64,000 nt of DNA from Piscinibacter defluvii. GTDB taxonomy: Bacteria > Pseudomonadota > Gammaproteobacteria > Burkholderiales > Burkholderiaceae_C. The DNA is taken from contig NZ_ML137196.1 of assembly GCF_004011805.1 (NCBI RefSeq), positions 369,024 through 433,023 on the forward strand, given 5' to 3'. The position numbers and the translations under genes are program-made. Under the pieces are notes generated by a model. That model saw only the letters and a program-made list of their open reading frames with translations, was not told the origin of the DNA and searched no databases. How positions within the stretch are numbered: position 1 is the first letter of the stretch; each line of letters opens with the position of its first letter. Below are positions 7,012-43,737 of this stretch, one piece after another.

Positions 7012-7614
7012 TCAGAACAGCGCCGCCTGGTCCGCCGCCTCGAACAGCTTGCGCGACAGCTCGCGCATCTGCTGGTTGATGTCCTGCGAGGGCGGCGTGC
7101 TGGCGCGGGCGCTCCAGGCCGGCTTGCCGCTGCGCACGTCGCTGACGCGGCCCTCGAGCGCGAAGCCGTAGGTGGTCTGGCCGCCGGCGATCGGGGCCGA
7201 CACGCCGACCCCGCCGCGCACGCTGCCGCCGCCCAGGCCGAAGGCACCCAGGCCGATCGAGAAGCTGGGCGTTGCGCCGGCGCCGGCCACGCTGACGCGG
7301 TTCACCCACAGCGCACGCACGCCGAGCTTGCCGGCCGCGGCCAGCAGCGGCGCATCCCCCTGGCCCGGCGCGAACTCGGGCGCCGGCACCGGCGTCGCAT
7401 TGCGCGCGACGAGTTCGGACGCGAGCTGGTCCTGGCAGAGCTTCTTCAGCGTCAGGTCGGGCGCCTCGCAGGCCACCATCACACGGGCGCCGCGCAGCAG
7501 GTCGGGCGGGCGCTGCGGGTCGCTCCATTGCGCGTCGACCTGGGTCGAGGCGCAGCCGGCCAGGGCCAGCAGGGGCAGCAGCGCAAACGGGAGCAGGCGG
7601 CGGGCGGGGTGCAT
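7012..7614 (-). CDS. lipoprotein (signal peptide with lipobox LAGC)
   Basis: MHPARRLLPFALLPLLALAGCAST... is a type II signal peptide with a lipobox. About 200 aa. It lies 44 bp downstream of the giant operon on the same strand. Confidence 0.6.
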   Translation of the reverse strand: MHPARRLLPFALLPLLALAGCASTQVDAQWSDPQRPPDLLRGARVMVACEAPDLTLKKLCQDQLASELVARNATPVPAPEFAPGQGDAPLLAAAGKLGVRALWVNRVSVAGAGATPSFSIGLGAFGLGGGSVRGGVGVSAPIAGGQTTYGFALEGRVSDVRSGKPAWSARASTPPSQDINQQMRELSRKLFEAADQAALF

Positions 7615-7657: not shown

Positions 7658-9496
7658 TTACGGCTCGATGCCGTCGTAACGCAGCCCGCTCGACCCCTCG
7701 CCGCGGCCGACACGCTTGCGCAGCGCGAGCCACAGCACCGTGCTGCCGCCGATCCAGCGCGTGCATTGGTAGCCGCGCGTGACGAGCGCACCTTCGCGCG
7801 GCACCTCCTCGTCGTGCAGCCGCAGCGGCGCGCCGGCCAGGATCGCGCCACGCGCCGCGTTGAGGCCACCGGTCTGCTGCAGCCGGCCGCGCACCAGGCG
7901 CAGGCTGCCGTCGGGCGCGGCCTGGCGCTGCGGCACCAGCGGGATCCAGTGCGGCGGCACCTCGGTGGCGAGGCGGTAGGACGGCAGCGCAGCGCCGGGC
8001 GAATCGGCCGCGCTCGCGTCGCGGCGCTCGTCGGTGGCGCGCTCGACACGCTGCTCGACGCGCCCCTGCACCACCTTCTCCACCGCCCAGGCCAGGTTGG
8101 CCAGCTCGTCGCGCAGCAGCAGCACCTCGTCGCGCGGGTTGCCGTCCAGGCTGCGCAGCAGGCCGGGCGCCAGGTAGAACAGGTTGGCGCGTGGCGCCGA
8201 GGGCCGGTAGATCGCCGCGCTCATGCTGTCGCGCGCCGGCGGGCGCTGCAGCGTGGCGAGCGCGAACATCGAGAACACGTTGGCCTGGTCGGCCGTGCCC
8301 GGCTCGTGCGGGCGGATCAGGGTCTGCACGCCGAAGGTGTCGGCCACCACCAGCGAGCGGGTCTGCGTCAGCGTGCCGACCGCCAGGTCGACCGGGATCA
8401 CGTACCAGTCGTTGCCGTGGCTGCCGGCGAAGTCGGCCAGCAGCAGCTGCGGCAGGTCGCCCGGGCCGGCGGGCAACAGGCCATGGTCGATGCGCGCGTC
8501 CTCGAACTCCCAGAAGCGCCGCGCCGGCGCGCCGCGAAAGCTCACCGGCGCAGGCATCACGGTGCGGGCCACCTCGCCGGCGGCCTGGTCGAACACCGCG
8601 CCGAGCGGCACGGCGGGGTCGAGGTCGACGCTGTGCCAGTCGAGCCGGCCGCCGTCGTACTCGGCCGCGGTTAGCGTCAGGTCCGCCGCGCCCAGCCCGG
8701 CGCCGGCCGAGAAGGCGTATTCGAGCCGCTCACGCTGCCAGGCGTCGGGCCCGGGCGCGGGCTCGCAGAACAGCGTCTCGTAGGTCGCGAGCCAGGCGTC
8801 GACGGCGGCATTCACCTCGGCGCGGTCGGGCCCCGCGATGGCGGGCTCGGCGGGCAGCGGCAAGCGTGTGCCGTCGGCCGCGCGCCAGGCGGCGGCCAGC
8901 AGGCGGCCGTCGGGCACGCGGCCGGCCATCAGGTCCCAGTAGTCGCGCGATTCGTCGTCGAGCGTGGCGCGTTCGGCGGCGGTCGGTGCCTCCAGCGCAT
9001 GCTGGGCGATGAAACCGGCGCGGTAGCTGCGCGACAGCGGCTGCGCCTCGAGCAGGCGCAGGAAGTGCAGCCCGCTCTCGGCCGCCAGCCGGATCGAGCT
9101 GCCGGCATCGAAGGGGCCGCTCGCGCGCACCGGGCGGCGCTCGACCACCGCCTCGAGCGGCAGCGCGGCCGGGTCGTAGGGCTGCGGGCGGATCGGCTGG
9201 CCGGGCTGCGCAGCGCCGGGCCAGACCCGCGTCAGCGGCGCGCTCAGGCCGCGCCAGCGCGCCTGCACCGGCGAGCCGGCGTCCTCGCCCTCGAACTCGC
9301 CCACCTGCCACTGGCGCGCCAGCAGCCAGAGCGGATCGAACACGCGTGCATGGATGCCCTCGCGCATCGCCGCATCGCGGCAGCGGGGCTCGAGGCGCAC
9401 CCAGCTGGTGATGGACGGTTGCGGTCCGGAGGAGGCGACGACGACCGTGGCCGCGAGGGTGGCGCCGGTGGCAGCCGTGGTGGGACGGGTGACCAT
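7658..9496 (-). CDS. hypothetical protein, 612 aa (gene 5 of giant operon)
   Basis: MVTRPTT... (alternative start MREGIHARVFDPLWLLARQWQVGEFEG at about 9367). Residue composition is protein-like (W, F, Y, D, E) in a 70% GC background. Its ATG lies 3 nt after the stop of the upstream gene. No signal peptide and no recognised domain. Confidence 0.6.
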   Translation of the reverse strand: MVTRPTTAATGATLAATVVVASSGPQPSITSWVRLEPRCRDAAMREGIHARVFDPLWLLARQWQVGEFEGEDAGSPVQARWRGLSAPLTRVWPGAAQPGQPIRPQPYDPAALPLEAVVERRPVRASGPFDAGSSIRLAAESGLHFLRLLEAQPLSRSYRAGFIAQHALEAPTAAERATLDDESRDYWDLMAGRVPDGRLLAAAWRAADGTRLPLPAEPAIAGPDRAEVNAAVDAWLATYETLFCEPAPGPDAWQRERLEYAFSAGAGLGAADLTLTAAEYDGGRLDWHSVDLDPAVPLGAVFDQAAGEVARTVMPAPVSFRGAPARRFWEFEDARIDHGLLPAGPGDLPQLLLADFAGSHGNDWYVIPVDLAVGTLTQTRSLVVADTFGVQTLIRPHEPGTADQANVFSMFALATLQRPPARDSMSAAIYRPSAPRANLFYLAPGLLRSLDGNPRDEVLLLRDELANLAWAVEKVVQGRVEQRVERATDERRDASAADSPGAALPSYRLATEVPPHWIPLVPQRQAAPDGSLRLVRGRLQQTGGLNAARGAILAGAPLRLHDEEVPREGALVTRGYQCTRWIGGSTVLWLALRKRVGRGEGSSGLRYDGIEP

Positions 9497-9498: not shown

Positions 9499-12400
9499 TC
9501 AGCGCAAGGTGGCGAGGCCGGGCGACACCGCGTCGCCCTCGGCGTTGACGGCCAGCCCGAGGGCCGGCAGGAAGTGCGCGAGCTCGCCGACCGCGCTGCC
9601 GGCCGCGCCGACCGGGTCGACGAAGGCGCGGTCCAGCGCCTCGGCGTCGACCGCGCGCAGCGCGGCCAGCTCGAGCGTCTCGAGCAGCAGGCGGTGCAGC
9701 GACCAGCCGGTCCAGGGCTGCGCGGCATCGGGCGGCACGGCCAGCAGCACGGTCTGCGGCGCGCAGGCATCGGGCGCGTCGAACTGGAACGCGATGCCGG
9801 TGCTCTCGCGTTCGTTCGGCACCGTCTCGACCCAGTCGTCCAGCCACAGGCCGGCCAGCGGCTGGGTGGCGTCGAGTCCGTCGTCGGCCTGCAGCACCAG
9901 CGAGAGCTTGCCGGCCGGGATGGCCTGTCCGGGCAGCGGCGCCAGGCCGACCCAGCGCTCGCCGGCCACGTGCGGCAGCTGCGCCACCGCCAGGCGCGGC
10001 CGCTCGGCGGCACCGATCGCCTCGGCCGCGTGCAGCAGCGCGCCGGCGCGGCCCACGCCCTCGCGCACGCGCGCCAGGCGCTGCCACCACGGGTGCAGCA
10101 CCAGCGGGTCGCCACCCAGCAGCACCGGCCCGGCGGCAAGCGACGCGTTCAGCTCGGCGCCATTGGCCGGCACGAAGGGCGCGAGGGCCAGGAAGTCGGC
10201 GCCGAACAGCGTCTTCAGCCGGGCCGAGGCAGAGGCCGCCCGCTGGCGCGCGTCGGCGCCGGCCGGGCTGCGCTGCGCGGCCAGCGCCGCCAGCCGCCGC
10301 GCGGCCTCGGCCTGCACCGGGCGCGCCTGCAGCAGCAGCGCGGCACGTTCGGCGGCTGCCTCGGCCAGCGGCGCACCCGGCACGGTGCCGGCCACGCCGT
10401 AGCGCAGCAGCGCGAGCAGCGCCTTGCGCAGGGCCGGGATGGCCGCCGTGTCGGGCGTGGCCAGCAAGGCCTGCAGCGGCGCCAGCGCGGCGCCCAGGCC
10501 GGCCTCGGCGGCCGCGGCGCGTGCCTCCAGGTCCTCGGCCGCGGGCTGGCCGTTCGCGCTGGCCGCCGGCCCGGCCAGGTCCAGCGGGTCGAGCATGCGT
10601 GCGCCGGCCAGGCATTGGCGCGCCCGGGCCGCGACTTCGAGCGCCTCGCGCAGGCTGAACTCGCCCGCCGCCCAGCCGCTGCGCCGGCGCGGGTCCAGGC
10701 GCAGCGGCGCGCCGGCGGGCACCCCGGCCAGCTGGCCGCGCGCGACCTGCAGCGCGAGCGCGTCGAGCTCGGGGGTGGCGGCGCCGGGGCGCGCCGGCGC
10801 CATCCAGACCAGGTCGAGCGGCGCGAGCGCCAGCGCCGACAGCCGGCATTCGAGCCGGCGCAGCACGCGGCCGGCCGCGTCGAGCTGCTCGACGCCGTAG
10901 CGCACCCGGGCCGGCAGCGGCAGCAGCCGTGCGGCCCAGGCGTTCAGGCGCGGCTCGGCGGTGGCCCGCGGCGACGTCGTCGGCCGGGCCCAGCCGGCCG
11001 GCGCCGTCGTGGCGGCCGGGGCGGCCAGCAGCCAGGCCACGCGCTGCGTCAGCCCGGTGCCGCTGCGCGGCGTGCGCGCCACCGTCAGCTCGGGCGGCGG
11101 TGCCTCGCCGTGCGCGATGGCGGCCAGCGTGCTGGCGCTGCGCGCGGTGTTGCCGCGCACCGTCTGGTGCACGGTCTCGGCCAGCACCGCATCGGCCAGC
11201 GCGTCGACCGTGTCGTCGAGCACCCGCAGCGCCGCCGCGCAGACCGCGAACGGCGAGTCCGCCGGCAGCGGACCGCCCGGCGCCAGCGCCTGCTGCCACA
11301 GCTGGTGCAGCCGCAGGCCGTCGACCACGCGGTTCGCGGCCACGCTCTCGGCGCTGGTGCCGGGCGGCGCGTCGGCGCTTTGCAGCGGCGCCAGCGCGCG
11401 GCAGCGCGGCACCTGGGCGTCGAGCCCGCGTTCGTGCAGCTCGCGCTCGAAGCGGTAGCCAAGCAGCGCGCCGAGCGGCTGGCCCTGGCGCACGCCGTCG
11501 AGCAATTGCTCGGCCAGGCGCACGCGCCGCGAGGACAGGTCCACCGCGAAGGCGCCGGCCGCCTGCAGGTTGGCCTTGCCGAGGTGGCCGTTGCGCAGCA
11601 GCGCGGCGGTCTGCGCCTGCTCGAGCGAGGGCGCGTGCAGGAAGCCGGGGTCGTCGCGCAGCGGGTAGACCGGGCCGGTCTCGCCGGGCGGCGTGGGCAG
11701 CGGCGCGATGGCCGGCGCGGCGCGCAGGTTCAGCACCCAGCCGTAGCCGCCGCAGCGCAGCCCGGTGGCGCGCGTGCCGCGCAGCGCCGCGAGGCGGCGC
11801 GTGGCCAGCGAGGTGATCCAGGCGTCGAGCCGGTGCGCGGCGCAGTCCAGCGTGCCGGCCAGCAGGCGCTGCAGCGCGGGGGTGGGCAGGCCGGCCAGGT
11901 GGGCGAAGGCCTCGCGCAGGTCGCGCAGCGGCGCGGCCTCGGGGGCCTCGAGCCCGGCCGGCGTGGCAAGGAAGGCGCCGAGCGGCTGCCCGCCGCTGGC
12001 CTCGGCACTTGCGGCGAGCTGCTCGCGCCAGGTGGTGCTGCGCGTGGCGGCGTTGAAGTTCATCAGCTCGACATCGCGCCAGGGCCCTGGCGGCACCGCC
12101 TGGCCCCGCGCGGCCAGGCGCAGCGCGGCGGCCAGCGTCTCGAGCTGCAGCGCGTGGCGCAGCAGCGCCTGCAGCAGTGAACGCGCATCGGTCGGCGCAC
12201 CCGGCGCCGCGGGCGGCGGCTGCAGCGGCGGCGCGGCCAGCAGGGCCTGGATGAACGCGGCCTCGTCGTCGCGCACCAGCGGCACGCCGAGTGCCTCGCT
12301 GCCGGGCGCGAAGGCCGATTCGGCCAGGCGCGGTCGCCCGGTCAGGCCGAGCTGGCGCCACACCGCGTAGGCCAGCGTGTCGCGGGCAGCCGCCCAGCCG

Positions 12401-13920
12401 CTGGCCGCGGGGTCGACCCCGAGGAAGCTGCGCAGGTGCTGCAGGTAGCGCGGGCCGAGCAGCTGGCGCAGCCGGTAGCCGGCCGCGACCGCATCGCTTT
12501 GCAGCGCGGCGGCGAGCTCGGCGTCGGCCGTGCCGCCGTTCGGGCGTCCCAGGCGCGGCACGCTGTCGATGCGTGGCCGCCAGAGCCGGTCGCGCAGCGT
12601 GACGAGCAGGTCGCGCAGGCGCTGCTCGCGCGCCGCGTCGGGGTCGCCGGCACGCGGCGCCAGGTCCGCCAGCAGCGTGACCGGCAGCAGGCCGTAGGGC
12701 TGGCGCCCGACGCGCAGCGCCGGCAGCGGGCCGAACGGGCGCAGGAAGTCGAGCGCATGGCCGCGCACCCAGTCGAGCGCGGCCGGCGTGAGCCCGGTGC
12801 CGACGAAGCCGATCAGGTTGGCGAGGTGGTAGCCCCAGGTGGCCGGCCAGAGCGCCGCGGCCATCTGGCGCGCGTCGAGCTGCTCGCGCGCGGCCGCGCC
12901 CTCGAGCCGGCCGAGCGCGGCCAGCGCCGGCGCGTCGGACAGGCCGAGCGAGCGCGCCAGGCGCTCGGCCTGCGTGTGCGGCGCGAGCGTGGCGAGCGCG
13001 TCGCGCCACAGCGTGTCGAAGCTGCGCCGGTGGCCGGGGTCGCCGCTGTCGTGGCCGGAGGGCTCGTCCTCGGTGTTGTTGGTCGGCGTCGCGCTGGCCA
13101 GGAAGGCCAGGCCGTCGGTGTGCCGGTGCGCCTCCAGCAGCCCGGCCAGGCCGGCCGAGGCGTCGGCGGCCGCGCCCACGCCGAACACCAGCAGCACGTC
13201 GACGCCGGTCACGCCGACCGGCAGCAGCAGGCGCAGCGCCATGCCCTCGCGCTCGGCGGTCTCGAAATCGACCATCCAGCGCATGCCGGCGTCGATGGCG
13301 AGCTGGTCCTCGCGCGTCGGCGGGCTGCTGCCGGTCACCGCCGGCCCGAGCGCCGGGGCGCGCTTGATCGGCCGCCCCTGCGCCTGCGCGACGACCTGCC
13401 CCCCGGCACGGGCCACGGCGAACCAGCGCTCGGGCATCAGCCGCGCCACCGGCGTGATGCTCCAGCCCGAGGCGCCCGCCGCCGGCCGCGGCGTGACGGC
13501 CGGGAAGCGCGGCGTGCCGGGCTTCGCCGGGTCCGGCCCGGGCGCGTTGGTCGGCGTCAGCACCTGCGCGATCCAGGCCGCGCGGGCCGCGTCGAAGCGG
13601 TCGGCCAGCTGCTGCCAGGCGGCGCGGCGCTTGTCCTCGCTGGTGCCGGCCAGCCAGGTCTGGGTCCAGAAGTGCTTGCCCCATTCGATCTCGGCGGCGG
13701 TCAGCGCACGTTCGTGCGCGTCGACATGGAGCTGGTCCGGGAACACACGCACGCGCAGCTCGCTGCGGCCGTCCGGCTGCGCGAAGAAACGCGTCTCCAG
13801 CCGCACCGGCAGCAGCGCGAGCGGCAGGTCGCCGGGTGCGAGCGGCGCGGCCAGCTCGGCCGGCACGGGCTGCGGCGAGAAGGCCAGCAGCTGGATCATC
13901 GAGGGCAGTACCGTCGGCAT
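9499..13920 (-). CDS. hypothetical protein, 1473 aa, Ala/Leu-rich and probably largely alpha-helical (gene 4 of giant operon)
   Basis: [18 protein letters not shown]...[10 protein letters not shown]... is continuous, non-low-complexity and spans 4.4 kb. The start lies 13 nt after the stop of gene 3. No recognised domain. Confidence 0.65.
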
Positions 13921-13933: not shown

Positions 13934-16891
13934 TCAGGCGGGCAAGAGCTCGCTGGCGTGGATCAGCACGCGCACCGGCAGCTGCAGCAGCGCACGTGCG
14001 GCCTGCCCGGCATGCACGGCCCAGGGCGTGGCGGCGGGGCGCGGCGAACCATCGGGGTTCAGGTCGAGGCGCAGGTGGCTGCCGGCGCCCGTGGCCGGCG
14101 GCGCGTCGACGCCGAAGCGCGGCTCGGTGGGCTGCTGCTGCAGCACGAAGTACCAGCCGGGGTGGCCGATCGCCTCCGCGACCGGGATGTCGAAGCCGAA
14201 GAACGCGATGTCGGGCTCGAGCGCGCCGCGGAACAGCGGCAGGCGTTCCTCGCCCGCCCCCTCGGGCGGCCGGCGCTGCGCGCCCTGCGCGACGCCGCGC
14301 ACCGCGTACACCGCCGTGCCCGGGTAGCGCCGCAACAGCACGCTGCGCAGCAGCAGCACCAGCGGTGGCGGCATCGGCGCGCCGGTCACCTCGCGCGGGG
14401 CCTGCTCGCCGAGCCGCGCCGTGCCCCAGCCCGCCAGCGGCACGATGTCGCCCGGCACCGTGGCACGTGCGCTGCGCCAGAAGCGCTCGAAATACGTGCC
14501 CGTCTCGTGCGCGAGCGGGAAGTCGCGCCAGACCAGCTCGCGGGTCATCTCGACGTTCAGGCCGAGCATGAAGGCCTCGATGAAGCGCCGGTTCGGCTCG
14601 AGCAGCGCCACCGTGTCGGCCGGCACCTGCTGCAGCCCGGGCAGCAGCCAGTCCTGCGACAGCCGCGCCAGCGCCTCGGAGGCCGGCAGCGTGTAGCGCG
14701 GGATCAGGCCCAGCGCGCCACCGGGCAGCGTGGCGGCCGCGGGGGACGGCGCCGGTTCCGCACGCTGCACCGCGGCGCGCCAGCGCTGCGCCAGCATCGG
14801 CGCCGGGTCGAGCTGCGCCTGCACGCTGGGCCGCTGCGCCACCAGCAGCGGTTCGAGGGCCAGCAGGGTCAGCACCGGCGTCGGCGCCGGCGCCGGGTTG
14901 ACCAGCGCAAGGTGGCGCCGGGCCGCGGCGCGGAAGCGGGCCGCGTCGGCGCTGTCCACCGGCACCGGCGGCGGCGCCGGCGGCTCCACCGGCGGCGGCG
15001 GGTCCGGATCGGGGTCGATCGGCGGCGGGCCCTCGCCCGGCGGGAAGATCGGGATCAGCCGCGCCGGCGCCGGCGCGCCGCGCGTGACCACCGTGGCCGG
15101 CGTCGCGACCAGCAGCGCCGGTGGCTCGGGCGCGACCACGAAGCCCGGGCGCCGCGGCGCGCCGGCCACCGCGGCGTCGGTCATGCCGGCGTACAGCAGC
15201 GACGGGTTGGGCGCCGGCGCGCGGCGGCTGACGTCGTCGACCGTGACGCAGCCGCGGGCCTCGGGCACCGGGCGAAAGATCACCGACGCGGTGAAGAACA
15301 CCTGGAACAGCCGCCCGGTGGCGACCACCGGGGGCGCGGCCACGTCGAGCTTGCGCGCCACCCGCGCGGAGCGCCGCGCCAGCGCGCCGCGCGGCCGCGT
15401 CAGGCGGCGCAGCGGCGCGGACAGCGTCGCGTCCGACGCGTTGGTGCGCGCGATCAGCGCGCGCATCGACGCGGTGGCGCCCGGCGCCGGGTCCTGCGGA
15501 TCGGGCAGGCGCAGCTGCGCGCGCGCCGGCGCGGCCAGGCGCCACAGCATGTCGTCCTGCCCCGCGGCGCCTTGCGTGAACGGGCGCACGTGGCGCTGCA
15601 GCAGCCGCGTGCCCACCGCGCCGGCCAGCTGCAGCTGGCGCAGCCGCTGGTTGACCGCCGCCATCTCGCCGGCCTGCGCCCAGGCCTGCGCGACCAGCTC
15701 GTCCTGCTGCGCCTGCACGACGCGCGTGCCGAGCCCGGCGGCGACGCGTTCGCGCGGGTCGAGGTTGATCTCGTCGAGCCAGGTCGGCGGCAGCGTGCTG
15801 CCCACCTGCCGGCGTCCGGCCAGCCAGCGGCCGTAGACCGGCGGGCCGACCAGCGGGTCGTCGTCGTCGGCACCGAGGCTGGTGTTGAGCAGCGCCTGCA
15901 GCGCGGCCTGCCAGCCCGGGCCGGCCGCGTCGGCCAGCGCCATGCGCGCCATGCCCACCGGCTGCAGCGCGCCCTCGAGTGCGATCAGGCCGTCGCGGCC
16001 CGGCGTGGCGGCATAGGCGAAGCCGGGCCGGCCGATGTCCAGCGGGCGGCGCCCGACCAACTCGGACAGGTCGCGCGGCACCAGCCGGTCGACGATGGTC
16101 TCGAAGTCCTCGCGCGCACCGGTGCGGAACTGCCAGTGGTGGTAGACCGGCAGCGCGATGCGCGACGGGTCTTCCGCGTTCGGCCAGGCCGGCGCCAGCG
16201 TGGCGCTGGCCGGCGGCGGGAGGTTCAGCCCGGCGCGCCGGCCGACCTCGAAGGTGGGCACCACGCAGGCCAGGTACTCGGTGTGCGCCTCGAGCCGGCG
16301 CGGGCTGAGCAGCCGCGCCACCGACAGCTCCGGGCGCGTGGCCACCAGCTGCTCGAGCGCCGTGGGGCTGGGCGGCGCATCGCCGGTCCAGCTCAGCTGG
16401 GCATGCGCCCAGGCCCAGGATTGCGCCAGGTCCGGCAGCTCCTCGGCCACGCGCGCCGGCGCGCCGATCTCCAGCACCGGCAGCGGCTCGCTGCCGGCCG
16501 GGCGCAGGCGCACGCCGTCCTGCACGCGCACCACCACCAGCGCGATCCACGGCCGCAGCCGGCCCTGCGCATCGGCCGCGGCGGGCGTGAAAAGCCACGG
16601 CAGGTCCGGGTTGTCGAACTCGATGGCCGCCAGGTCGAGCGCCTCGAAGTCGGTGCTGCCGTCCGGCGGCTCGGTGCGCAGCACCTGGCGTGGATCGATG
16701 CCGATCACGTCGGCCGGGCCGCGCACGCGCACGTCCACGCCCGGGTCGGTGGCGGCGCTGCCGGTGACGGCCAGGCTGACCTTCAGGTTCACCGAGGCCG
16801 GCAGGCCCGGCGCGCCGGTGTCGGGCTGCGCCAGCCGCGCGGCGAAGCCCTGGCGCAGCCAGGGGAAGAAGAGCAGGCGCGCGGTGGCCAT
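13934..16891 (-). CDS. hypothetical protein, about 985 aa, with a central Pro-rich linker (gene 3 of giant operon)
   Basis: [20 protein letters not shown]... The Pro-rich tract [29 protein letters not shown] (about 14951..15058) separates two halves. The start was chosen at the first ATG downstream of the palindromic element. The in-frame upstream extension to 17083 runs into that element. Confidence 0.6.
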
Positions 16892-17162
16892 CTCAGAAGC
16901 TGTGGGAGAACCCAACGCACCCGCGCCGGGGTGGCCAAGGGCCTTGGGCGAGGCGCGGCGCGCCGCCCAGACTGGCCGTCTGGGCCAGCGGCGCAACGCG
17001 GCCCAAGGCCCTTGGGTACCCCGGCCCGAAGGGTGAGCCCCGGGAAAGGGCCCACTGCGCGATGCAAATGCTCGACGTGCCACCCGGCACGTCTGTGCTT
17101 TGCGCCTCCATTGGGCCCTTTCCCGGGGCCCACGCGGGTGTGTTGGGTTCTCTCACAGCTTC
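16892..17162. repeat. 271-bp nested inverted-repeat (palindromic) intergenic element inside the giant operon
   Basis: Outer 31-bp inverted repeat agaagctgtgggagaacccaacgcacccgcg / cgcgggtgtgttgggttctctcacagcttct with 29/31 matches. Inner inverted repeats: ccggggtggccaagggccttggg / cccaaggcccttgggtaccccgg, a gcccagac-tggcc-gtctgggc hairpin, and a perfect 17-bp inverted repeat ccccgggaaagggccca / tgggccctttcccgggg around a gtgcc-accc-ggcac hairpin. Confidence 0.6.
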
Positions 17163-20100
17163 TCAGTTCGCCTCGAGGAAGGCCGGCATGGCGACCGGTG
17201 CGAGCGTCACACGCGGCGCCGGCGGCGCGTCGGCCAGCAGCGGCTCGGCGCGCCGCAGCGTGCTGCGCGCGGCGGCACCCTGGCGCGCGTGCAGCTCGGC
17301 CTGCGCGCCGGCCAGGGCGTAGCGGGGCAGCGTCCGCACGCGCTGCGGCGACTCGGGCGCGAGCGAGCGGTCGATCACCTTGGTCTCGTACTCGAGCGCG
17401 TACTCGGCCGCCTGGTCGAGCCGGAAGGCCGGCGTGCCGAGGCCGAGCTGCACGCCCGCCTCCATCGGCACGAAGGACGGGCTGGCCAGCATCTGCGCAT
17501 CGCTCAGCTCGAAGAACTGGGCCGGGGCGAAGTCCTCGTGCAGCCGCGTCAGCGTCTGCGGCGGCTCGGCCCGGCCGTCCACGCTCACCGCGCCGATGGC
17601 GAGCGTGCGCGCACCGAGCACCGGCGCACCGCCGAAGCGCCGCACCGGCTGCGGCGTGGCCAGCGGCACCACGCCCTGGCGCACCACCAGGCTGGCCAGC
17701 GGATGCACCAGCACCGGCGCGCCCGCGCTCGTGGTACCGCCGGGCTCGCGCAGCACGACGATGCGCGACTGCCCGGGCGCCAGCTCGCCATGCCAGTTGC
17801 GCGCGTCCGTCAGCGCGGCCACGAGCTGCGCCAGCAGGTCCACCGCCGGCGGCGCGGGCGGCCGGGCGCCGGAGATCAGCGTCGCGTCGACGCGGATCGA
17901 GACGTCCCACCACAGGATCTCGAACGTCGCCTTGGCCCGCAGCGCGAGCGGCCGCGGGCCCTCCAGCGCACCCTCGACCTTCACCTTGAACAGGTTGCGC
18001 GTGCCCTTGCGGATCTGCATGCTGGCCAGGAACTCGGCCAGGAAGTGGAACGGGTTCAGCGTGATCAGCACGTCGAAGCCGACGTCGCCGGTGACGTTGA
18101 AGCTCATCGGCCCCTCGGCATACAGGTGCGCCGCGGCGCCGAACTGCACGGTGTTGGAGGTGAGCGCGAAGTAGGCCTCGCAGGAGAGGCGCGGGTTGCT
18201 GCCGGTGGTGAGGTTCAGCGCCAGGCGCTCGAGCTTCGGGAAGCCGGCCGGCGGCGCAAACGCATGGTGCAGCCCGCCCACCGCGAGCGCGAAGCTGCGC
18301 GGCGAGCGCCAGCGCATGCGCAGCGCCATCGCGCCGGTCAGCACGAACTTGTCGAGCAGCTTCGAGTCGACCAGCACCGCGTCGACCGCGGCCGTGCCCT
18401 GGTCGAGGTCGAACACGCCGAGCGCGTCCATGCGCAGCACCAGCAGCGGGCTCTGCTCGCGCGGCAGCAGCGCGCTGATGCGGCCCAGCACGAACAGCCG
18501 GTCGCGCACGCCCCACTCGACCAGCACCGCCAGGTCCATGGTCACGATGACCGGCACGCCCCAGGTGATGCGCAGCATCGGCCCGAGCACGTAGCTGCCG
18601 CGCTGCGCCGGGAACACGCGCTCCAGCCCGGCCAGGATGGCTGCCGCATTGGCCACCGGGTCCTTTGGGAACAGGATCAGGTCGAGCGTGCGCTGGCGCA
18701 GGCCCTCGCGCAGCGCGTCCTCGCTGACGGTGCGGTGGATCGCCAGCAGCCCGCCGATGCCGGCCAGCTCGAAGCCCATCGGCAGGCGGATCGGGCGGAA
18801 GCCCTCGGCGGTGATCAGCAGCACCATCGAGTAGCCGCGCGCGCCGTCGGGCAGGCGCGTGGAGATCAGCCCGACCGCCTTGACCGACACCAGCTGCGAG
18901 ATCTCCAGCTCGAGCATGCCGGCGTACTGCCCCTTGACCGGGTCGTGGAACACGAAGCCGCCGCCCTTGACGCTCTTGGCGTCGACGACGAGTCCGATCG
19001 CGCGCGGCGCGAGGAAGCCGAGGTCGAGGTTCACCAGGCCGAGGTTGGCCTTGGCCATGTCCTGCGGGTGCGTGACGGTGGCGCGCAGGCCGATGTGGTC
19101 CACGCGCGCCAGCACCGGCCCGATGCGGCCGGACAGCGACAGCCCGAGCGAGAGGTCCAGGTGCGGCGCGGGGTCGAGCCCGCCGTCCACGCCGAGCAGC
19201 AGCTCGTCGAGCCGCACCGGCCCGAGGCTGCGGCCCACCGCGATGCGCCGGTGCAGGCCCTTGGCGGCCGGCTCGCCGCCGGGCAGCAGCGGCAGCGGCT
19301 GGTCGGGCACCGGCTGCGGCGGCTTGGGCGGCGGCGCGGGCACCTTCTGGCTCTCGAAGTCCTTCAGCCCGCCGGTCAGCTGCCAGCCCTGGCCGCTGGC
19401 ATAGCGCGTGCCGATGTCGAACTTGACGGTGGTCTTGCGGTCCGGCAGCAGCGAGCCGATGAAGCCGTCGATGGTGCTGGCGTCGAAGCTCAGCACGCAG
19501 CCGAGCAGCGCCAGGTCCAGGCTCGGCCCGCCCTCGTCGACCGCGGCCTTCAGCGCGACGCTGCGCACGCCGAAGCTGAGCATCCTGGTGTCCGGGAAGC
19601 GGAACAGCAGCGCACGGTCGGGCGTCTCGGTCGAGCGCAGGGTGAGCGCGATGCGCTGCCCGGCCGGCGCCGCCGCGCTGATGTCGTTCGCGCTGAACCA
19701 CAGCGGCAGCCCGGCGGCCTGCAGTTCGAAGCGCAGGCGCAGCCGCTTCGACAGCGCGACCTCGAGGTCCTCCTCGCCGCTCAGGCCCACGAACAGGCCG
19801 GGGCCGCCATGCGCCTCGGGGATCAGCGCAAGCGTGGTGGCGAGCGAGGCGTCGAGCGTGCTGGTCGGGTCGTCGTCCTTGTCGCGGGCATGCCAGCGCA
19901 CCGTCAGCATGCGGCTGGACAGCAGGTCGGCGGTGGACTCCGGCGTGGGGATGGCCTGCAGTGGCGGCACGGTGTCCCAGCCGTACAGCATGTCCAGCGC
20001 GTCCTGCTTCGCCCAGTCCTGGAACAGGCCCTTCTTCGCGATGCGCATCACCGCCAGCACGATGGCGGCCAGGCGCAATGTCGGGTTGGACAGCGCCTGC

Positions 20101-20612
20101 GCGTCGCCCTCGCTCGCGAGCCGTTCGAACGGCCCGCTGCCGGCGAACAGGAACTTCAGCAGCCCGACCACCGCGGACAGCGCCCGGTCCAGCGTGGTGT
20201 AGCCCTCGCCGAGCGGCGACGCGGTCTCGGCCATCCAGCCGACGAACTGCATCACGAACCAGAGCTTGGGGCGGTGCCGGTAGACGTAGTCGGTGGCGAG
20301 CAGGTCGATGGCCAGCACCTGCACCTCGTCGGCCACGTCGACCAGCAGCTCGTCGAGCTTCTTGCGCCGCTCGGTCAGGGCCTGCAGCAGCGCGAGCAGG
20401 TCGATGTCCTCGCCGCCGACGTAGCGGTCCAGCGCCGTGTCGCCGCCCGACGGTGCCGGCGCGGCACCGAGCGGGCCGAGCGCGATGCCCAGCGTGCGCG
20501 CCAGCGCCTCGCGCTGCGCCGCATCGCCCAGCGTCGCCTCGACGTAGCGCAGGAAGGCGATCAGCTCGCCGACCAGTCCGCGCAGCAGGGAGCCGTCGTG
20601 GTCGTCGGTCAT
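17163..20612 (-). CDS. hypothetical protein, 1149 aa, with an internal Pro-rich linker (gene 2 of giant operon)
   Basis: MTDDHDGSLLRGLVGELIAFLRYVE... has diverse composition. The Pro-rich tract QKVPAPPPKPPQPVPDQPLPLLPGG lies at about 19261..19362. The ATG lies 4 nt after the stop of gene 1. Confidence 0.65.
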   Translation of the reverse strand: MTDDHDGSLLRGLVGELIAFLRYVEATLGDAAQREALARTLGIALGPLGAAPAPSGGDTALDRYVGGEDIDLLALLQALTERRKKLDELLVDVADEVQVLAIDLLATDYVYRHRPKLWFVMQFVGWMAETASPLGEGYTTLDRALSAVVGLLKFLFAGSGPFERLASEGDAQALSNPTLRLAAIVLAVMRIAKKGLFQDWAKQDALDMLYGWDTVPPLQAIPTPESTADLLSSRMLTVRWHARDKDDDPTSTLDASLATTLALIPEAHGGPGLFVGLSGEEDLEVALSKRLRLRFELQAAGLPLWFSANDISAAAPAGQRIALTLRSTETPDRALLFRFPDTRMLSFGVRSVALKAAVDEGGPSLDLALLGCVLSFDASTIDGFIGSLLPDRKTTVKFDIGTRYASGQGWQLTGGLKDFESQKVPAPPPKPPQPVPDQPLPLLPGGEPAAKGLHRRIAVGRSLGPVRLDELLLGVDGGLDPAPHLDLSLGLSLSGRIGPVLARVDHIGLRATVTHPQDMAKANLGLVNLDLGFLAPRAIGLVVDAKSVKGGGFVFHDPVKGQYAGMLELEISQLVSVKAVGLISTRLPDGARGYSMVLLITAEGFRPIRLPMGFELAGIGGLLAIHRTVSEDALREGLRQRTLDLILFPKDPVANAAAILAGLERVFPAQRGSYVLGPMLRITWGVPVIVTMDLAVLVEWGVRDRLFVLGRISALLPREQSPLLVLRMDALGVFDLDQGTAAVDAVLVDSKLLDKFVLTGAMALRMRWRSPRSFALAVGGLHHAFAPPAGFPKLERLALNLTTGSNPRLSCEAYFALTSNTVQFGAAAHLYAEGPMSFNVTGDVGFDVLITLNPFHFLAEFLASMQIRKGTRNLFKVKVEGALEGPRPLALRAKATFEILWWDVSIRVDATLISGARPPAPPAVDLLAQLVAALTDARNWHGELAPGQSRIVVLREPGGTTSAGAPVLVHPLASLVVRQGVVPLATPQPVRRFGGAPVLGARTLAIGAVSVDGRAEPPQTLTRLHEDFAPAQFFELSDAQMLASPSFVPMEAGVQLGLGTPAFRLDQAAEYALEYETKVIDRSLAPESPQRVRTLPRYALAGAQAELHARQGAAARSTLRRAEPLLADAPPAPRVTLAPVAMPAFLEAN

Positions 20613-20616: not shown

Positions 20617-23600
20617 TCAGCTTCCGAGCGCCCGCAGCCTGTCGACCAGCGATTCGCCGAGCGGGGCCTTGAGCGGCTCGTCCTCGGGCCGCACCGCGCC
20701 GGCCGGCGGCGTCAGCTCGGCGCGCTGCTCCATCGCCACCTCGGGCGTCAGCAGGTGCGGCTGCTCGGCGCCGTCCAGCGGATCGGGCAAGGGGCAGATC
20801 ACCTGGTGCACGGCCTCGAGCACGTCGCGCCGCGCGCTGCCGCTGCCCTCGGTGCGGCGAGCGAACAGCACGCGGCCGAGGTTGCTGCGGAACAGGATGA
20901 AGCGCGAGTGGCTCAGCCGGTCGAGCTGGCGCACGTGGCGCGCGGCCACCTGCGCATAGGCGTCGCGCGCGCGGTCGCCGCCTTCCTCGAGCTGCGCGCG
21001 GCTCGGCGCGCCGCCGGCGATCGGCGCCGGCCGCGCCATCGCCGGGCGCGTCGTCGTTCCGGCATCCGGCCGCAGGTCGAACACCGGACGCAGGGTCCAC
21101 GAGAAGTCGGGCCGGCGCTCGCTGCGCACCGTGGTGCCGGCCGGCCAGCCCTGTGTGGGCAGGAAGGCCGGCCGCTGCGGGATGCGCTTGCGCAGCACGA
21201 TCGGCACGTCGCGCTCGCTGCGCCCGGGCGGGAAGGCGAACGCGCCATCGGCGCCGTCGAGCCAGCCGAGCCGGTCGCCGCCGATGTCGCGGCGCACCAG
21301 GTCCTGCGCGAACGAGAGGCTGTGGTCGATCAGCGTGATGTACGAGGGCATCACGTTCTTCAGGCCGCTCGAGGTGAACTGCAGCAGCCGCGCCGGCTGC
21401 GCCTCGCCGCGCCGCCAGTAGCTCATCTGCGTGGCGCTGCTGTAGTGCACGTCGCCCGACAGCAGCACCACGCGGCGGTGCGGCGCGAGCCGCGCCGTCA
21501 GCGCCTCGAAGGTGGCGGGGTCGAGCGCCCAGCTCTCGATCGCGTCCGGGTTCAGCCCCGGCATGCCCTCGCCGCCGCGGCCGGCGCCGATCTGGCCCGG
21601 CGTGGAGAGATCGAACGCGCGGTACGCGCCCGGCGCCACCACCTCGTCGAACACCGAGGGCGCCAGCACCTGCAGCGGCGCCACCACCAGCAGCACCTCG
21701 CGCCCGGCCGGCAGCGGCGCGGCGGGCACCTGGTCGTCGATCATCGTGGCGGCCACGTTGCCCGGCGGGCCGAAACGCGACGCGAAGCTGCGCCGCGTGC
21801 GGTTGTCGAGCACGGCGACCTGGAAGCTCGAGCCGTCGACCGTGTAGTGCCACTTCATCGGTGCGTTCACCGGTGCGTGGCGGCCGTGCGGGCGCGCCGG
21901 GTCCACCGGCTGCGGCAGCAGGTCGAGCCCGAACAGCCGGTCGAGCTCGCGCGTGGCGGCGGGCAGCGGCCACTCGGCGGCAGCGGCGCCGAACAGCCGC
22001 ACCACCTGGTTGAGCACCAGCCGGCCCGGCGCGCCGGCCTCGTAGCGCAGCAGATCGTTGCCCCAGTCCTGGAACACCGCATAGGCGGCCAGCGCATTGC
22101 GCACCACCTGGCGGCCGAGCGGCTGCGTGCGCACCGCGTCGGCGGCCAGCACGCGGCGGCACCACTCGGGGTTGAGGTTCCAGTCGTCGGTGACGTCGTG
22201 GTCGTCGAACACCATGTAGGTGGGCACGTTGGCCAGCGCGCGGCGCACCTTGGGCTGGCCGGCCGCAAAGCGGCGCAGCCGCGCCAGGTCGACATGCACG
22301 CCGCGCCACACCGGCCAGACATGCTCGCGCGCGAATTCCTCCACGCAGCGCGCCAGCGCGGTCTGGCCCAGGTTGACGTAGCCGTCGTCCGCGAAGGTCT
22401 TGCGCTGGGCGGGTGTCGGGTCGTCGGTCCAGCCGGTGACCAGGCACTCCAGCAGCGCGCCCTCCAGCGCCGCGTCGGCCACGTCGGGCGGCGCGGACAC
22501 GGCCACGCCGCCGAGCGTGGGCACCTCGGGTGCGAGCCAGGGCCGGGCCTCGGCCACCTGCAGCGCCTCGCGCAGGAAGGCGGCCCACTGCGCGGCGGGC
22601 ACCAGCGTCTTCAGGTGCTCGCACCAGCGATCTTCCTGCTGGTCGTCGTAGCGCTGCCGGCGCCGGCGCAGCTCGGCCAGGATGGCCGTGGGTCCGGCCA
22701 GCAGCACGCGCTGCGGCGGCTGCGCTTGCGGGTCGATCACGCAGTCGACGTCCGCCACGCGCGCGATGCCGAAGCGCTTGACCAGCGCGCGCATCACGCG
22801 CGCCTGCAGCTGGCGCATGAAGGTCTGCACCACCGCGGCATGCTTGCGCGCCAGCTCCTCCATCGCGCGGCCGGTGTCGGGGTCGAGCTCGGCACGCTGC
22901 TCGGCGCCCAGCAGCGCCAGGCTGTCGGGGTCGCCGATCAGCGCCAGGAAGCCGGCATGGCCTCGGGGCGGATTCGACCGCGCGAGGCGCTGCAGCATGA
23001 AGTGCGCGAAGCAGTCGGCCAGGCGCCGCTTGTTGCGCGGGCCGACGACGCCGGTCTTCTCGTCCGGGCGCGGGCGGATCGCGTTCCAGTCGGACCAGCG
23101 CGCGTTGCCGAAGTAGTCGACCGAGGCATCGTCCAGCCGGCTGCGCGCGTACATCGGCGCCGCGTCGATGTTGTCCTTGCCGGGCGAGCGCGCCACCGCG
23201 TCGAGCGGGATCTCCTTCAGCGCCTCCCAGCACCAGTCGGCATCCACGGTGAGGTACATCGCCGCGAACTCGCCGAACGAGAGCAGGTGGCTGCTGCCAT
23301 CGCTCGAGGTGAAGCGCGCATCGGCCCGCGTCAGCTCGAGCCGCCCGCCGGGCGGGAAGGCATCGAGCGTGGCCGGGTAGCGCTGCGATGCCAGGTCGAG
23401 CTTCGCGTCCTTCAGCACCGGCACTCGGCCGACCAGCAGCGATTCGGGGAAGGTCGCGAAGGTCTTGAGCCGCGTGCCGGCGGCCCGCAGCGTCTCGACC
23501 TTGGGCGCCGCGGGCGACTCGCTGTCCGACAGCAGGCGGTGCGCCAGGCGGTTCAGCAGCATCAGGTGGGGCGCGGAGACGTCGTCGGCGTAGATCTGGT

Positions 23601-24255
23601 CGCCGCCCAGGTAGAGCTGGTGCGGGCGCTTCAGCGCCGCCGGGCCGAGCGGATCGCCCTCCTGGCGCGACTGCCCGGCAAACGCCTGCTCGACCAGCGT
23701 GTCGATCCACGGCATCGCGTCGTAGTGGTCGTTGGCAACGCGCCGGCACGAGCCGTACAGCACGTTCAGGTCGGTCAGCAGCGCGGGCGGCAGCGCGAAG
23801 CTGGGCAGGAATCCGGCGGTGTAGCCGAGCGGCGCCTCGCTGACCCAGGCGCTCGGCGGCAGCCCGGCGGCGCTGAAGCGGCCGAGCAGGCCTTCGCTGG
23901 CGAGGCTGCGCTTGCCCGTGCCGTCGGCCGGCTGGAAGGCCAGGTCGTAGGCGTAGTTGACCCCCGGCTGCAGCGCCACCGCTGGGGCCGGCCGGCGCAC
24001 GACGACCAGCGCCACGTGCAGCCGCTCGCCGATGCGCAGCGTGGCCGTGGCCGGCGACACGGAGATCGCCTTGACCGTGGTGCCCGACTTGCGCAGCCCT
24101 TCCCAGACCGACAGCGTGACCGTGGCACTGCGGCTCAGCGCCACCCACACCGCCACCGCACGCGGCTCCACACGCCGCAGGATCGGGCCGGCCAGCACGA
24201 ACGGCAGTTCCACGCGCGGGGTCTCCTCGGGCCGGTGCCACGGCGCCCATCGCAC
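20617..24255 (-). CDS. PhoD-like metallophosphatase-family protein, greatly expanded (1212 aa) (gene 1 of giant operon)
   Basis: Ordered PhoD-like motifs are present: YGSCRR (about residue 168), LGGDQIYADD (about 218; nt about 23590-23605), MVFDDHDVTDDWN (nt about 22170-22206) and LLSGDVHYS (nt about 21440-21466). An N-terminal region is reminiscent of the PhoD N-terminal beta-sandwich. The motifs are spread over about 700 residues, against about 300 in a canonical PhoD. Confidence 0.65.
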   Translation of the reverse strand: MRWAPWHRPEETPRVELPFVLAGPILRRVEPRAVAVWVALSRSATVTLSVWEGLRKSGTTVKAISVSPATATLRIGERLHVALVVVRRPAPAVALQPGVNYAYDLAFQPADGTGKRSLASEGLLGRFSAAGLPPSAWVSEAPLGYTAGFLPSFALPPALLTDLNVLYGSCRRVANDHYDAMPWIDTLVEQAFAGQSRQEGDPLGPAALKRPHQLYLGGDQIYADDVSAPHLMLLNRLAHRLLSDSESPAAPKVETLRAAGTRLKTFATFPESLLVGRVPVLKDAKLDLASQRYPATLDAFPPGGRLELTRADARFTSSDGSSHLLSFGEFAAMYLTVDADWCWEALKEIPLDAVARSPGKDNIDAAPMYARSRLDDASVDYFGNARWSDWNAIRPRPDEKTGVVGPRNKRRLADCFAHFMLQRLARSNPPRGHAGFLALIGDPDSLALLGAEQRAELDPDTGRAMEELARKHAAVVQTFMRQLQARVMRALVKRFGIARVADVDCVIDPQAQPPQRVLLAGPTAILAELRRRRQRYDDQQEDRWCEHLKTLVPAAQWAAFLREALQVAEARPWLAPEVPTLGGVAVSAPPDVADAALEGALLECLVTGWTDDPTPAQRKTFADDGYVNLGQTALARCVEEFAREHVWPVWRGVHVDLARLRRFAAGQPKVRRALANVPTYMVFDDHDVTDDWNLNPEWCRRVLAADAVRTQPLGRQVVRNALAAYAVFQDWGNDLLRYEAGAPGRLVLNQVVRLFGAAAAEWPLPAATRELDRLFGLDLLPQPVDPARPHGRHAPVNAPMKWHYTVDGSSFQVAVLDNRTRRSFASRFGPPGNVAATMIDDQVPAAPLPAGREVLLVVAPLQVLAPSVFDEVVAPGAYRAFDLSTPGQIGAGRGGEGMPGLNPDAIESWALDPATFEALTARLAPHRRVVLLSGDVHYSSATQMSYWRRGEAQPARLLQFTSSGLKNVMPSYITLIDHSLSFAQDLVRRDIGGDRLGWLDGADGAFAFPPGRSERDVPIVLRKRIPQRPAFLPTQGWPAGTTVRSERRPDFSWTLRPVFDLRPDAGTTTRPAMARPAPIAGGAPSRAQLEEGGDRARDAYAQVAARHVRQLDRLSHSRFILFRSNLGRVLFARRTEGSGSARRDVLEAVHQVICPLPDPLDGAEQPHLLTPEVAMEQRAELTPPAGAVRPEDEPLKAPLGESLVDRLRALGS

Positions 24256-41550: not shown

Positions 41551-41559
41551 GGCTCGCCC

Positions 41560-43720: not shown

Positions 43721-43737
43721 CCCCTAGCCGCATTGAT

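Follow-up and report, generated by a model that had tools for sequence, protein, structure and literature searches.

Introduction

The usual view of PhoD enzymes is that they are secreted to scavenge phosphate, and the phoD gene serves widely as a soil marker for that role. Canonical PhoD is exported by the Tat pathway and requires Ca2+, a metal that is scarce in the cytoplasm. For PhoD of Bacillus subtilis (2YEQ; PF09423), a member of the Pho regulon, mutagenesis identified C180, D207, D265, D266, N271, N272 and D436 as required for activity; its two Ca2+ sites involve D265, D266, N271, N272 and D436, and Asp has been reported in place of Asn only at the N272 position (PMC4223295). In purple acid phosphatases, the divalent metal ligands form a His2-Asp-Asn set (PMC4223295). 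The PhoD-type phospholipases D of Streptomyces chromofuscus and S. avermitilis provide a precedent within the PhoD family for specialization on a non-scavenging substrate through a remodelled active-site cleft; unlike the protein described here, these enzymes are secreted and of ordinary size. Acid sphingomyelinase and SMPDL3 (5JG8, 5KAR) offer an analogy only, as their accessory domains are terminal and their active site contains two zinc ions.

Here we describe a PhoD-like protein encoded in a five-gene operon (g1 to g5) of Piscinibacter defluvii, located in a window of 64,000 nt, by which we mean the whole stretch of DNA that was analysed.

Results

Organization and gene content of the operon

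The operon comprises the following features.

20617..24213, minus strand: g1, PhoD-like metallophosphoesterase of 1198 aa when read from the probable GTG start
17163..20612, minus strand: g2, DUF6603 protein, 1149 aa, starting 4 nt past the g1 stop codon
16898..17160, no strand: MITE-like insert separating the stop codon of g2 from the start codon of g3, ~263 bp long and bounded by 28-bp terminal inverted repeats
13934..16891, minus strand: g3, 985 aa, no known family, called from GC3 and translation and syntenic in ~55 of the best 80 loci
9499..13920, minus strand: g4, 1473 aa, no known family, supported by synteny
7658..9496, minus strand: g5, 612 aa, no known family, the last gene, and the best conserved of the five

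The g1 open reading frame spans 20617..24255 on the minus strand (1212 aa) with coding-type composition (GC3 = 0.95). The GTG at 24255 marks the limit of this frame and would give the 1212-aa product, while the true start is probably the GTG at 24213, giving 1198 aa, because a GAGGAG Shine-Dalgarno sequence lies 8-13 nt upstream of the latter and homologues start with M-x-LPLLLAGPILRRVEP. The sequence-only reading had placed g1 at the head of an operon of very large genes, and this was confirmed, the followers encoding 1149, 985, 1473 and 612 aa. Piscinibacter sp. MQ-18 does not have the MITE-like insert; there, only ~2 nt lie between the stop of g2 and the start of g3 (TGAGATG).

The g2 protein clearly belongs to DUF6603 (PF20248), a family with no assigned function; the match (E 7.8e-121) covers positions 2-501 of the 502-position profile. 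Searches of Pfam with g3, g4 and g5 gave no match, searches of the PDB with g2 to g5 gave no meaningful match (for g3, none at all), and NCBIfam, PADLOC and PHROGs returned zero matches for any of the five proteins. Profile-profile comparison among g2 to g5 revealed no common domains, with all probabilities below 2%. Scanning of the five sequences detected no signal peptide, Tat motif or transmembrane segment in any protein, nor was an NTPase motif found, and g1 is the only recognizable enzyme among them.

Distribution of the module

The g1 family is present in at least 552 species genomes, and the g1-type branch comprises ~2,700 clusters at 50% identity. The order g1-g2-g3-g4 is kept in ~55 of the best 80 loci, across many phyla, with g5 closing the operon; in Bacteroidota the same five genes occur in rearranged order. 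The module ranges from soil bacteria to a salt-loving archaeon, in which a haloarchaeal megaplasmid carries all five genes in identical order, the g2 orthologue being labelled 'DUF6603 domain-containing protein' in RefSeq. The archaeal g4 orthologue contains a halo_surf_dom insert, and the archaeal g5 orthologue ends in a C-terminal lamin tail domain. In prokaryotes, most lamin tail domains belong to hydrolases that are secreted or membrane-associated, calcineurin-like phosphoesterases among them (PMC6085458). Homologues of g5 number more than 1655 and are ~55% identical across phyla, all of them annotated as 'hypothetical'.

The genes adjoining the module differ from locus to locus and are unrelated, and analysis of 127 upstream neighbours at 46 loci revealed no conserved sixth gene, regulator, or defence, restriction-modification or mobility family. 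A plasmid search gave 21 matches, all distant and mostly partial, with the full module only on the haloarchaeal megaplasmid, and no phage homologues were found. Stand-alone relatives occur in cyanobacteria, Ktedonobacteria, Salinivibrio and Roseibium. A literature search yielded nothing relevant on DUF6603 (PF20248), on DUF7800, or on a PhoD-like protein in defence, and the obligate pairing of a PhoD-like gene with DUF6603 seems not to have been described before.

Family assignment and fold of g1

The Pfam PhoD profile (PF09423) matches g1 above the gathering threshold by a marginal score (27.7 bits against a cut-off of 27), through a single 29-residue stretch (profile positions 76-104) corresponding to the FDDHDVTDDWN region. 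Relatives score 28-40 bits, and a compact relative aligns up to profile positions 53-292. Alignment of the g1 family with a 625-aa 'alkaline phosphatase family protein' using hhalign gave a probability of 100% (E 5e-44, 537 columns).

The structure model of g1 (pLDDT 85.4, pTM 0.88) adopts the PhoD fold, with an N-terminal Ig-like domain followed by a two-sheet metallophosphatase sandwich, and PhoD is the closest among solved structures.

23914..24213, minus strand: N-terminal Ig-like beta-sandwich, DUF7800 / PhoD_N-like, residues 1-100

A beta-rich, PhoD-N-like N-terminus had been proposed from the sequence, and the model bears this out as a beta-sandwich of residues 1-95 (strands 6-16, 19-26, 30-38, 65-73 and 86-95), with a sub-threshold match to Pfam DUF7800 (E 2.8e-4), which also matches relatives. 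Residues 6-16, the first strand of the Ig-like domain, are modelled with pLDDT 88-97. The N-terminus is conserved from residue 1, and a scan of the sequence gave no signal peptide or hydrophobic segment in g1.

By sequence alone, the link to PhoD is weak. Neither phmmer with g1, which gave zero PDB matches, nor the g1-family profile searched against PDB sequences recovered PhoD; the sole match to the profile, a seryl-tRNA ligase, was attributed to chance (E 0.76). Foldseek with the g1 model gave nothing in the PDB at E <= 1e-3, with PhoD (2yeq_A) at E 8.5e-3, presumably because the insert described below disrupts the local alignment; the top rows were amylase N-domains aligned to the Ig-like domain. 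We conclude that g1 is a genuine member of the PhoD-type metal-dependent phosphatases, though highly diverged, and that its catalytic core houses a large helical domain.

Compact proteins with DUF7800 and PhoD domains from Salinivibrio (WP_269580528, 625 aa) and Roseibium (WP_228873176, 664 aa) belong to the g1 subfamily, with Pfam PhoD scores of 31-38 bits. By hhalign they share with g1 the N-domain, GSCR, GDQIYADD, SHLxSF..AMYL and FDDHDxTDDWN, but they are without the long helical domain (the GD to DDH spacing is 157 aa in Salinivibrio) and stand alone, beside transporter genes.

Conservation of metal-ligand positions

Four PhoD motifs are present in g1 in the following positions.

23740..23757, minus strand: YGSCRR, residues 167-172 (1212-aa numbering)
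23581..23610, minus strand: LGGDQIYADD (GDxxY), residues 216-225 (1212-aa numbering)
22177..22209, minus strand: FDDHDVTDDWN, residues 683-693 (1212-aa numbering)
21439..21459, minus strand: SGDVHYS (GDxH), residues 933-939 (1212-aa numbering)

That these motifs are real rather than chance matches, as the sequence-only reading had held, follows from an alignment of 58 relatives with identity down to 42%, in which G-S-C-R, G-D-Q-I-Y-A-D, D-D-H..T-D-D-W..N and S-G-D-V-H form invariant columns, and from their recurrence in more than 50 loci of many phyla. In the 1198-aa numbering used hereafter, the invariant residues are G154, S155, C156 and R157 in the YGSCRR motif, G204, D205, Q, I, Y208, A and D210 in the GDxxY motif, and S919, G920, D921, V922 and H923 in the GDxH motif. 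The pattern DDH[DE]xTDD is family-wide in the survey of loci.

By position, Cys156 corresponds to Cys-180, an Fe3+ ligand in PhoD; Asp205 corresponds to PhoD Asp-207, and Tyr208 to the tyrosinate ligand. D670 and D671 match PhoD D265 and D266, D921 matches the bridging Asp D436, and H923 is a candidate His ligand. By motif position, the Fe3+-site set (Cys or Asp, Asp, Tyr, His) is thus filled in g1 by C156, D205, Y208, D921 and H923. Among the positions of the PhoD Ca2+ sites, D670, D671 and D921 are conserved, whereas D676 and D677 occupy those of N271 and N272, so both Asn residues are replaced by Asp. Because both of these CaB Asn ligands are Asp, the metal content of g1 may differ from that of PhoD. 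All nine ligand equivalents (C156, D205, Y208, D670, D671, D676, D677, D921 and H923) are invariant in the 58 sequences and also conserved across loci and phyla.

Compared with purple acid phosphatases (6OFD, 7OV8, 3ZK4), g1 has the Asp-rich, PhoD-type DDHDxTDD, and Cys replaces the first Asp. The purple acid phosphatase ligand set GNH(D/E), VxxH and GHxH is not found in g1, in which the loops read FDDHDVTDDWN and SGDVH. Relative to B. subtilis PhoD, g1 has 12% identity, no Tat signal, a Pfam score at the cut-off, Asp at both Asn271 and Asn272, a helical insert separating the second ligand loop from the third, ~80 additional residues ahead of GDxH and a ~250-aa C-terminal region, and it lies in a five-gene module rather than the Pho regulon.

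A helical domain inserted between ligand loops

The span from the Cys to GDxH is 765 aa in g1 and 256 aa in PhoD, most of the difference arising from a single helical insertion.

22228..23151, minus strand: inserted all-alpha domain between the GDxxY and DDH loops, residues ~355-662, ~300 aa

The helices at residues 359-662 are modelled mostly with pLDDT 85-97. The spacing between GDxxY and DDH is 465 aa in g1 against 58 aa in PhoD (D207 to D265), and the corresponding PhoD spacing from D265 to D436 is 171 aa, so that g1 exceeds PhoD by a net ~407 aa at the first site but by only ~80 aa at the second. Of the two large insertions proposed from the sequence, one therefore stands as an inserted helical domain (~355-662 in the model), while most of the second gap is spacing that PhoD also has; the sizes given for them, ~450 aa and ~230 aa, were raw spacings and overstate the net excess.

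Part of the insert (residues ~383-601, ~230 aa) is specific to Piscinibacter-like long forms and is missing from more than 80% of short forms. Among closer long forms it shows 47-55% identity with few gaps, falling to 30-40% in the three most divergent. The spacing from GD to DDH is 159-472 aa in operon forms (median 217) and 142-148 aa in stand-alone forms, an association between insert length and operon membership that is confounded by phylogeny. The insert alone has no significant match in Pfam or the PDB: its best Pfam match was DUF2894 (E 0.054), and a saposin-like domain was rejected, the best PDB match being granulysin (E 0.065).

Discussion

The picture of the secreted scavenger does not extend to a large PhoD branch that has no export signal, carries a domain inside its catalytic core and lies mostly in a conserved operon together with genes for four large uncharacterized proteins; surveys with the phoD marker may include genes unconnected with phosphate scavenging. 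We consider it probable that g1 is a catalytically competent, highly divergent enzyme of the PhoD / purple-acid-phosphatase branch of the calcineurin-like metallophosphoesterases, acting within a five-protein module that may form a complex. In this proposal, the sandwich would keep all PhoD ligand positions, namely a Cys/Asp/Tyr/His Fe3+-type site and the Asp-rich sites that hold two Ca2+ in PhoD, and by analogy with PhoD, g1 may hydrolyse phosphodiesters or phosphomonoesters via a metal-bridged hydroxide. The helical domain of ~300 residues lies between the second and third ligand loops and should, by virtue of that placement, adjoin the active-site face; there it may be a cap or an adaptor, either giving the substrate cleft its shape or serving as a docking site for partner proteins. 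The idea, raised from the sequence, that the substrate is macromolecular or bound to a partner would fit the very strong five-gene synteny and the longer spacing of operon forms. Made without a signal peptide, g1 would supply the only recognizable catalysis in a module of five proteins that is self-contained and moves horizontally. Our best guess is that these proteins form a large complex acting on a polymer or lipid with phosphodiester links, perhaps at the cell envelope or outside it. The surface domain of archaeal g4 and the lamin tail domain of archaeal g5 hint at an envelope location of the module, whereas the missing export signals in g1 to g5, together with the Ca2+ requirement of PhoD, argue against either that location or the metal assignment. 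With its mutable ligand residues, the predicted metal-dependent phosphoesterase provides a biochemical handle on a widespread, uncharacterized DUF6603-containing module. A bolder reading, to which we give slightly less than even likelihood, is that the five genes encode a previously unrecognized machine of ~5,400 residues, without NTPase, anchor or secretion signal, exchanged horizontally among at least 12 bacterial phyla and haloarchaea, in which one PhoD-type phosphodiester cleavage is steered by a helical adaptor built into the active-site face; the machine would then be a cellular or envelope apparatus whose functional class is new, rather than a variant of any characterized system.

Several other explanations were considered. 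An anti-phage or conflict system, in which the large partners would detect infection and g1 would be the effector, a phosphodiesterase degrading nucleic acids, nucleotides or a signalling nucleotide, would account for the patchy spread over phyla and domains with variable neighbours, as in horizontally moving accessory modules, and for an operon whose several genes encode very large proteins but just one hydrolase; SIR2-EAD11 and nSTAND1 genes follow the module in Flavilitoribacter. This explanation is nevertheless unlikely, given that no PADLOC-DB 2.0 model matches g1 to g5 at E <= 0.1, that the 127 upstream neighbours contain no recurrent defence, restriction-modification or mobile-element family, that phage homologues were not found and the 21 plasmid matches include the module only on the haloarchaeal megaplasmid, and that the five proteins have no NTPase motif. 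The conservation of g5 (~55% across phyla) is also unusually high, and in structure g1 stands nearest to PhoD and the purple acid phosphatases rather than to nucleases. Rather doubtful, too, is a complex of toxin-like or surface type, for which assembly in the cytoplasm would precede release or exposure, with the beta-sheet-rich DUF6603 protein engaging membranes and g1 acting as a phospholipase-D-type or polymer phosphodiesterase. The PhoD family contains a Ca2+-dependent phospholipase D (PMC4223295; PMC13435022), and the family's S. chromofuscus enzyme acts on phospholipids; g1 would keep a Ca2+-type ligand set, and the two archaeal accessory domains would suit such a role. Against it, the module has no signal peptide, transmembrane segment or linked secretion or lysis genes, and it is also found in single-membrane bacteria and archaea, a range that sets DUF6603 apart from classical outer-membrane proteins.

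The fold and ligands of g1 are those of PhoD and certain relatives stand alone, as expected for an ordinary phosphate-scavenging PhoD that merely adjoins large genes. This is barely plausible in view of the 4-nt gap that tightly couples g1 to g2, the synteny in ~55 of the best 80 loci and in an archaeon, the absence of nearby pho or pst genes, and an N-terminus without Tat or Sec signal that forms the first strand of the Ig-like domain. Pseudo-enzymes usually lose catalytic ligand residues, and a structural scaffold that has lost catalysis is very improbable for g1, since its nine ligand equivalents are invariant down to 42% identity and across phyla, and core-b is the best conserved region of the protein (75-81%).

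Gene identification and family assignment

Since the G+C content of the window (~72-75%) gives long ORFs in all frames, real genes were chosen among them by third-position GC. The ORF of the PhoD-like metallophosphoesterase gene under study, g1, at 20617..24255 (-), clearly codes for protein (1212 aa; GC1/2/3 of 0.76/0.52/0.95). The annotated start, the GTG at 24255 that gives the longest ORF, probably precedes the real one by 14 codons. Homologues start M-x-LPLLLAGPILRRVEP and a Shine-Dalgarno sequence, GAGGAG, lies upstream of the GTG at 24213, so that this codon is the probable true start. It gives a protein of 1198 aa, whose numbering is used for individual residues (C156, D205 and so on), and with it the divergent intergenic region up to the GH3 beta-glucosidase gene upstream, at 24310, measures 96 nt. 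Translation recovered, in the same order, all four PhoD-family motifs listed by the sequence-only reading.

PhoD-family motifs of g1 (1212-aa numbering; window coordinates checked by translation)
167-172, YGSCRR
216-225, LGGDQIYADD
683-693, FDDHDVTDDWN
933-939, SGDVHYS

Alignment to Pfam HMMs, proposed earlier as a check, gave a PhoD match just above the cut-off (27.7 against 27 bits), confined to a single 29-residue stretch containing the DDHD motif, and an N-terminal DUF7800 match below the cut-off. No NCBIfam model fits g1, a phmmer search of PDB sequences gave no match, and a 58-member family profile did not recover PhoD from PDB sequences. The PhoD assignment from the g1 sequence by itself is thus thin. 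A tblastn search of plasmids turned up compact proteins that carry the annotation 'alkaline phosphatase family protein', among them a 625-aa Salinivibrio protein that scores 38.5 bits on Pfam PhoD. In hhalign, the g1 family profile aligned with this protein over 537 columns, from the N-domain through all motifs (probability 100%, E 5e-44), and the compact protein is, at the level of sequence, an independent bridge between the g1 family and PhoD.

Predicted active site of g1

Replacing C180, D265, N271, N272 or D436 in PhoD of B. subtilis abolishes activity, which also drops drastically when D207 or D266 is replaced; the Fe3+ ligand set is PAP-like, with Cys-180 replacing an Asp, and two Ca2+ are bound as well (PMC4223295). 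The PhoD ligands were placed on g1 by motif order.

PhoD ligands and their g1 counterparts by motif order
C180, C156
D207, D205 (Y208 is the tyrosinate candidate)
D265 / D266, D670 / D671
N271 / N272, D676 / D677
D436, D921 (H923 is the His candidate)

Both Asn ligands of PhoD are Asp in g1, whereas an Asp is mentioned at the N272 position only in PMC4223295. All ligand-equivalent columns are invariant in a 58-sequence alignment with identity down to 42%, and the signature DDH[DE]xTDD is kept in all loci that could be scored; together these make it unlikely that g1 is a pseudo-enzyme. The protein has the PhoD/PAP fold and a complete, invariant PhoD-type set of candidate ligands. The geometry of the metal site is predicted from the motifs, and g1 would be an active metal-dependent phosphoesterase with a bridging-hydroxide mechanism as in PhoD.

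A helical domain inserted between ligand loops

The span from the GSCR-motif Cys to the GDxH motif is 765 aa in g1 versus 256 aa in PhoD (C180 to D436), and the extra length is found almost entirely between GDxxY and DDH.

GDxxY-to-DDH spacing
PhoD, 58 aa
Stand-alone cyanobacterial and Ktedonobacteria relatives, 142-148 aa
Salinivibrio protein, 157 aa
Operon-linked forms, median 217 aa (range 159-472)
g1, 465 aa

In the predicted structure, residues ~355-662 form an all-helical domain (pLDDT mostly 85-97) that lies between ligand loops 2 and 3 and whose long helices span 445-481 and 617-651. Residues ~383-601 are missing in >80% of the 900-980-aa family members, which marks them as a lineage-specific enlargement. 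Among the long forms, relatives sharing this extra helical part, identity within it is 47-55%, and gaps are few, for the closer sequences and 30-40% for the three most divergent, against 75-81% for the catalytic half; the insert is thus a maintained domain rather than junk. Searched alone against Pfam and PDB, the insert gave no significant match. From DDH to GDxH, g1 spans 251 aa versus 171 aa in PhoD. The earlier observation on g1 is confirmed and its interpretation is borne out in part: of the two large insertions it proposed, one is a domain seen in the structure prediction, while the second reduces to a modest elaboration of ~80 residues. We conclude that g1 is a predicted PhoD-family enzyme with a domain inserted in its core. 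Because it joins two ligand loops, the insert would face the active site, and may act there as cap or adaptor towards either a substrate or a partner. The longer GDxxY-to-DDH spacing of operon-linked forms fits such a role, in a comparison confounded by phylogeny.

A conserved five-gene module

As proposed earlier, g1 leads an operon of giant genes, all on the same strand.

Module genes and intervening element
20617..24213 (-), g1, from the probable GTG
17163..20612 (-), g2, DUF6603 (Pfam E 7.8e-121), 1149 aa, start 4 nt past the g1 stop
16898-17160, MITE-like insert of ~263 bp between the g2 stop (17163-17165) and the g3 ATG (16891)
13934..16891 (-), g3, 985 aa
9499..13920 (-), g4, 1473 aa
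7658-9496 (-), g5, 612 aa

Searches of Pfam, NCBIfam, PADLOC, PHROGs and PDB sequences gave no match for g3, g4 or g5. No hydrophobic segment, signal peptide, Walker A or HExxH motif was found in any of the five proteins, and no domain sharing among them. The g2 model is weak as a whole (pLDDT 59, pTM 0.41); its DUF6603 core (~residues 450-915, pLDDT 75-90) is an array of long antiparallel beta hairpins. The best-conserved protein is g5, whose versions in Betaproteobacteria and Verrucomicrobia are ~55% identical over 95% of the length; it has >1655 homologues and no Pfam family.

Homologues of g1 number >1000 at 90% clustering, all named 'hypothetical'; at 50% identity it matches 2732 clusters, 1037 of them with E <= 1e-30. 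With one genome scanned per species, relatives turned up in at least 552 species, the best match being Piscinibacter sp. MQ-18 (95% identity). The phyla include Proteobacteria, Actinomycetota, Acidobacteriota, Verrucomicrobiota, Nitrospirota, Gemmatimonadota, Planctomycetota, Chloroflexota, Bacillota, Bacteroidota, Cyanobacteria and Myxococcota. Synteny was assessed by tblastn of g2-g5 against 85 loci, 80 of them the best from the genome scan. The order g1-g2-g3-g4 occurs in ~55 of these 80, and in four Bacteroidota loci the five genes are arranged as g4-g5-g3-g1-g2. In g5-centred loci, the operon ends at g5 in Burkholderiales JOSHI_001 and a Verrucomicrobiae MAG. No shared upstream neighbour emerged from 46 loci (127 ORFs, 176 Pfam families, the commonest being histidine kinases, with 7). 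The five genes form a conserved and self-contained module headed by g1. Cyanobacterial and Ktedonobacteria relatives (L058-L064, L070-L085) have no g2-g5 within 10 kb and are shorter (ORFs ~820-895 aa where measured), forming a stand-alone sub-branch of the subfamily; one Calothrix member adjoins sufC, sufD and sufS.

No phage was found to carry g1. Plasmids gave 21 matches, mostly partial, and only one plasmid, a 437-kb haloarchaeal megaplasmid of Salinigranum marinum, has the complete module, its gene order unchanged (NZ_CP100462.1, 334581-354217). Its g4 (2322 aa) contains the haloarchaeal surface domain NF045517 (halo_surf_dom insert) and its g5 (904 aa) carries a lamin tail domain at the C-terminus; in RefSeq both are named after these appended domains. 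A literature search found no mention of DUF6603, PF20248 or DUF7800, and within the tools and literature searched the module is uncharacterised, and it is a more interesting object than g1 itself.

Possible function and location

The five proteins would form a complex. Prokaryotic lamin tail domains are associated with membrane-associated or secreted hydrolases, calcineurin-like phosphoesterases included (PMC6085458). This association, the archaeal domain fusions and the retained candidate ligands of Ca2+ type are hints that the site of action is the envelope or the extracellular space. g1 carries no export signal, and the absence of signal peptides from all five proteins argues against such a site, unless the complex is released by another route. 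A defence system would fit the patchy distribution of the module and one neighbourhood, in Flavilitoribacter nigricans, where SIR2-EAD11 and nSTAND1 NTPase genes, typical conflict-system components, directly follow the rearranged module (L030, 17153-20188). This arrangement was seen at one locus only, and the defence reading has little specific support beyond these two points.

The MITE-like insert has 28-bp terminal inverted repeats (AGCTGTGAGAGAACCCAACACACCCGCG, 2 mismatches) and is flanked by a CTGAGA/TGAGA duplication. Piscinibacter sp. MQ-18 lacks it, its g2 stop and g3 start being ~2 nt apart (TGAGATG), and no further copies were found in the window or 91 fetched loci. The insert may be polar on g3-g5. 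Downstream of g5, 5745-7614 holds a small gene (~200 aa) with a lipoprotein-like N-terminus, LLALAGC, and a gene for a membrane-located GGDEF diguanylate cyclase (E 1.3e-39); other genomes keep neither beside the module. Elsewhere in the window, G+C falls to 0.64-0.67 at 38001-48000, against 0.71-0.80 in the rest, and on this lower G+C the stretch may be a foreign island.
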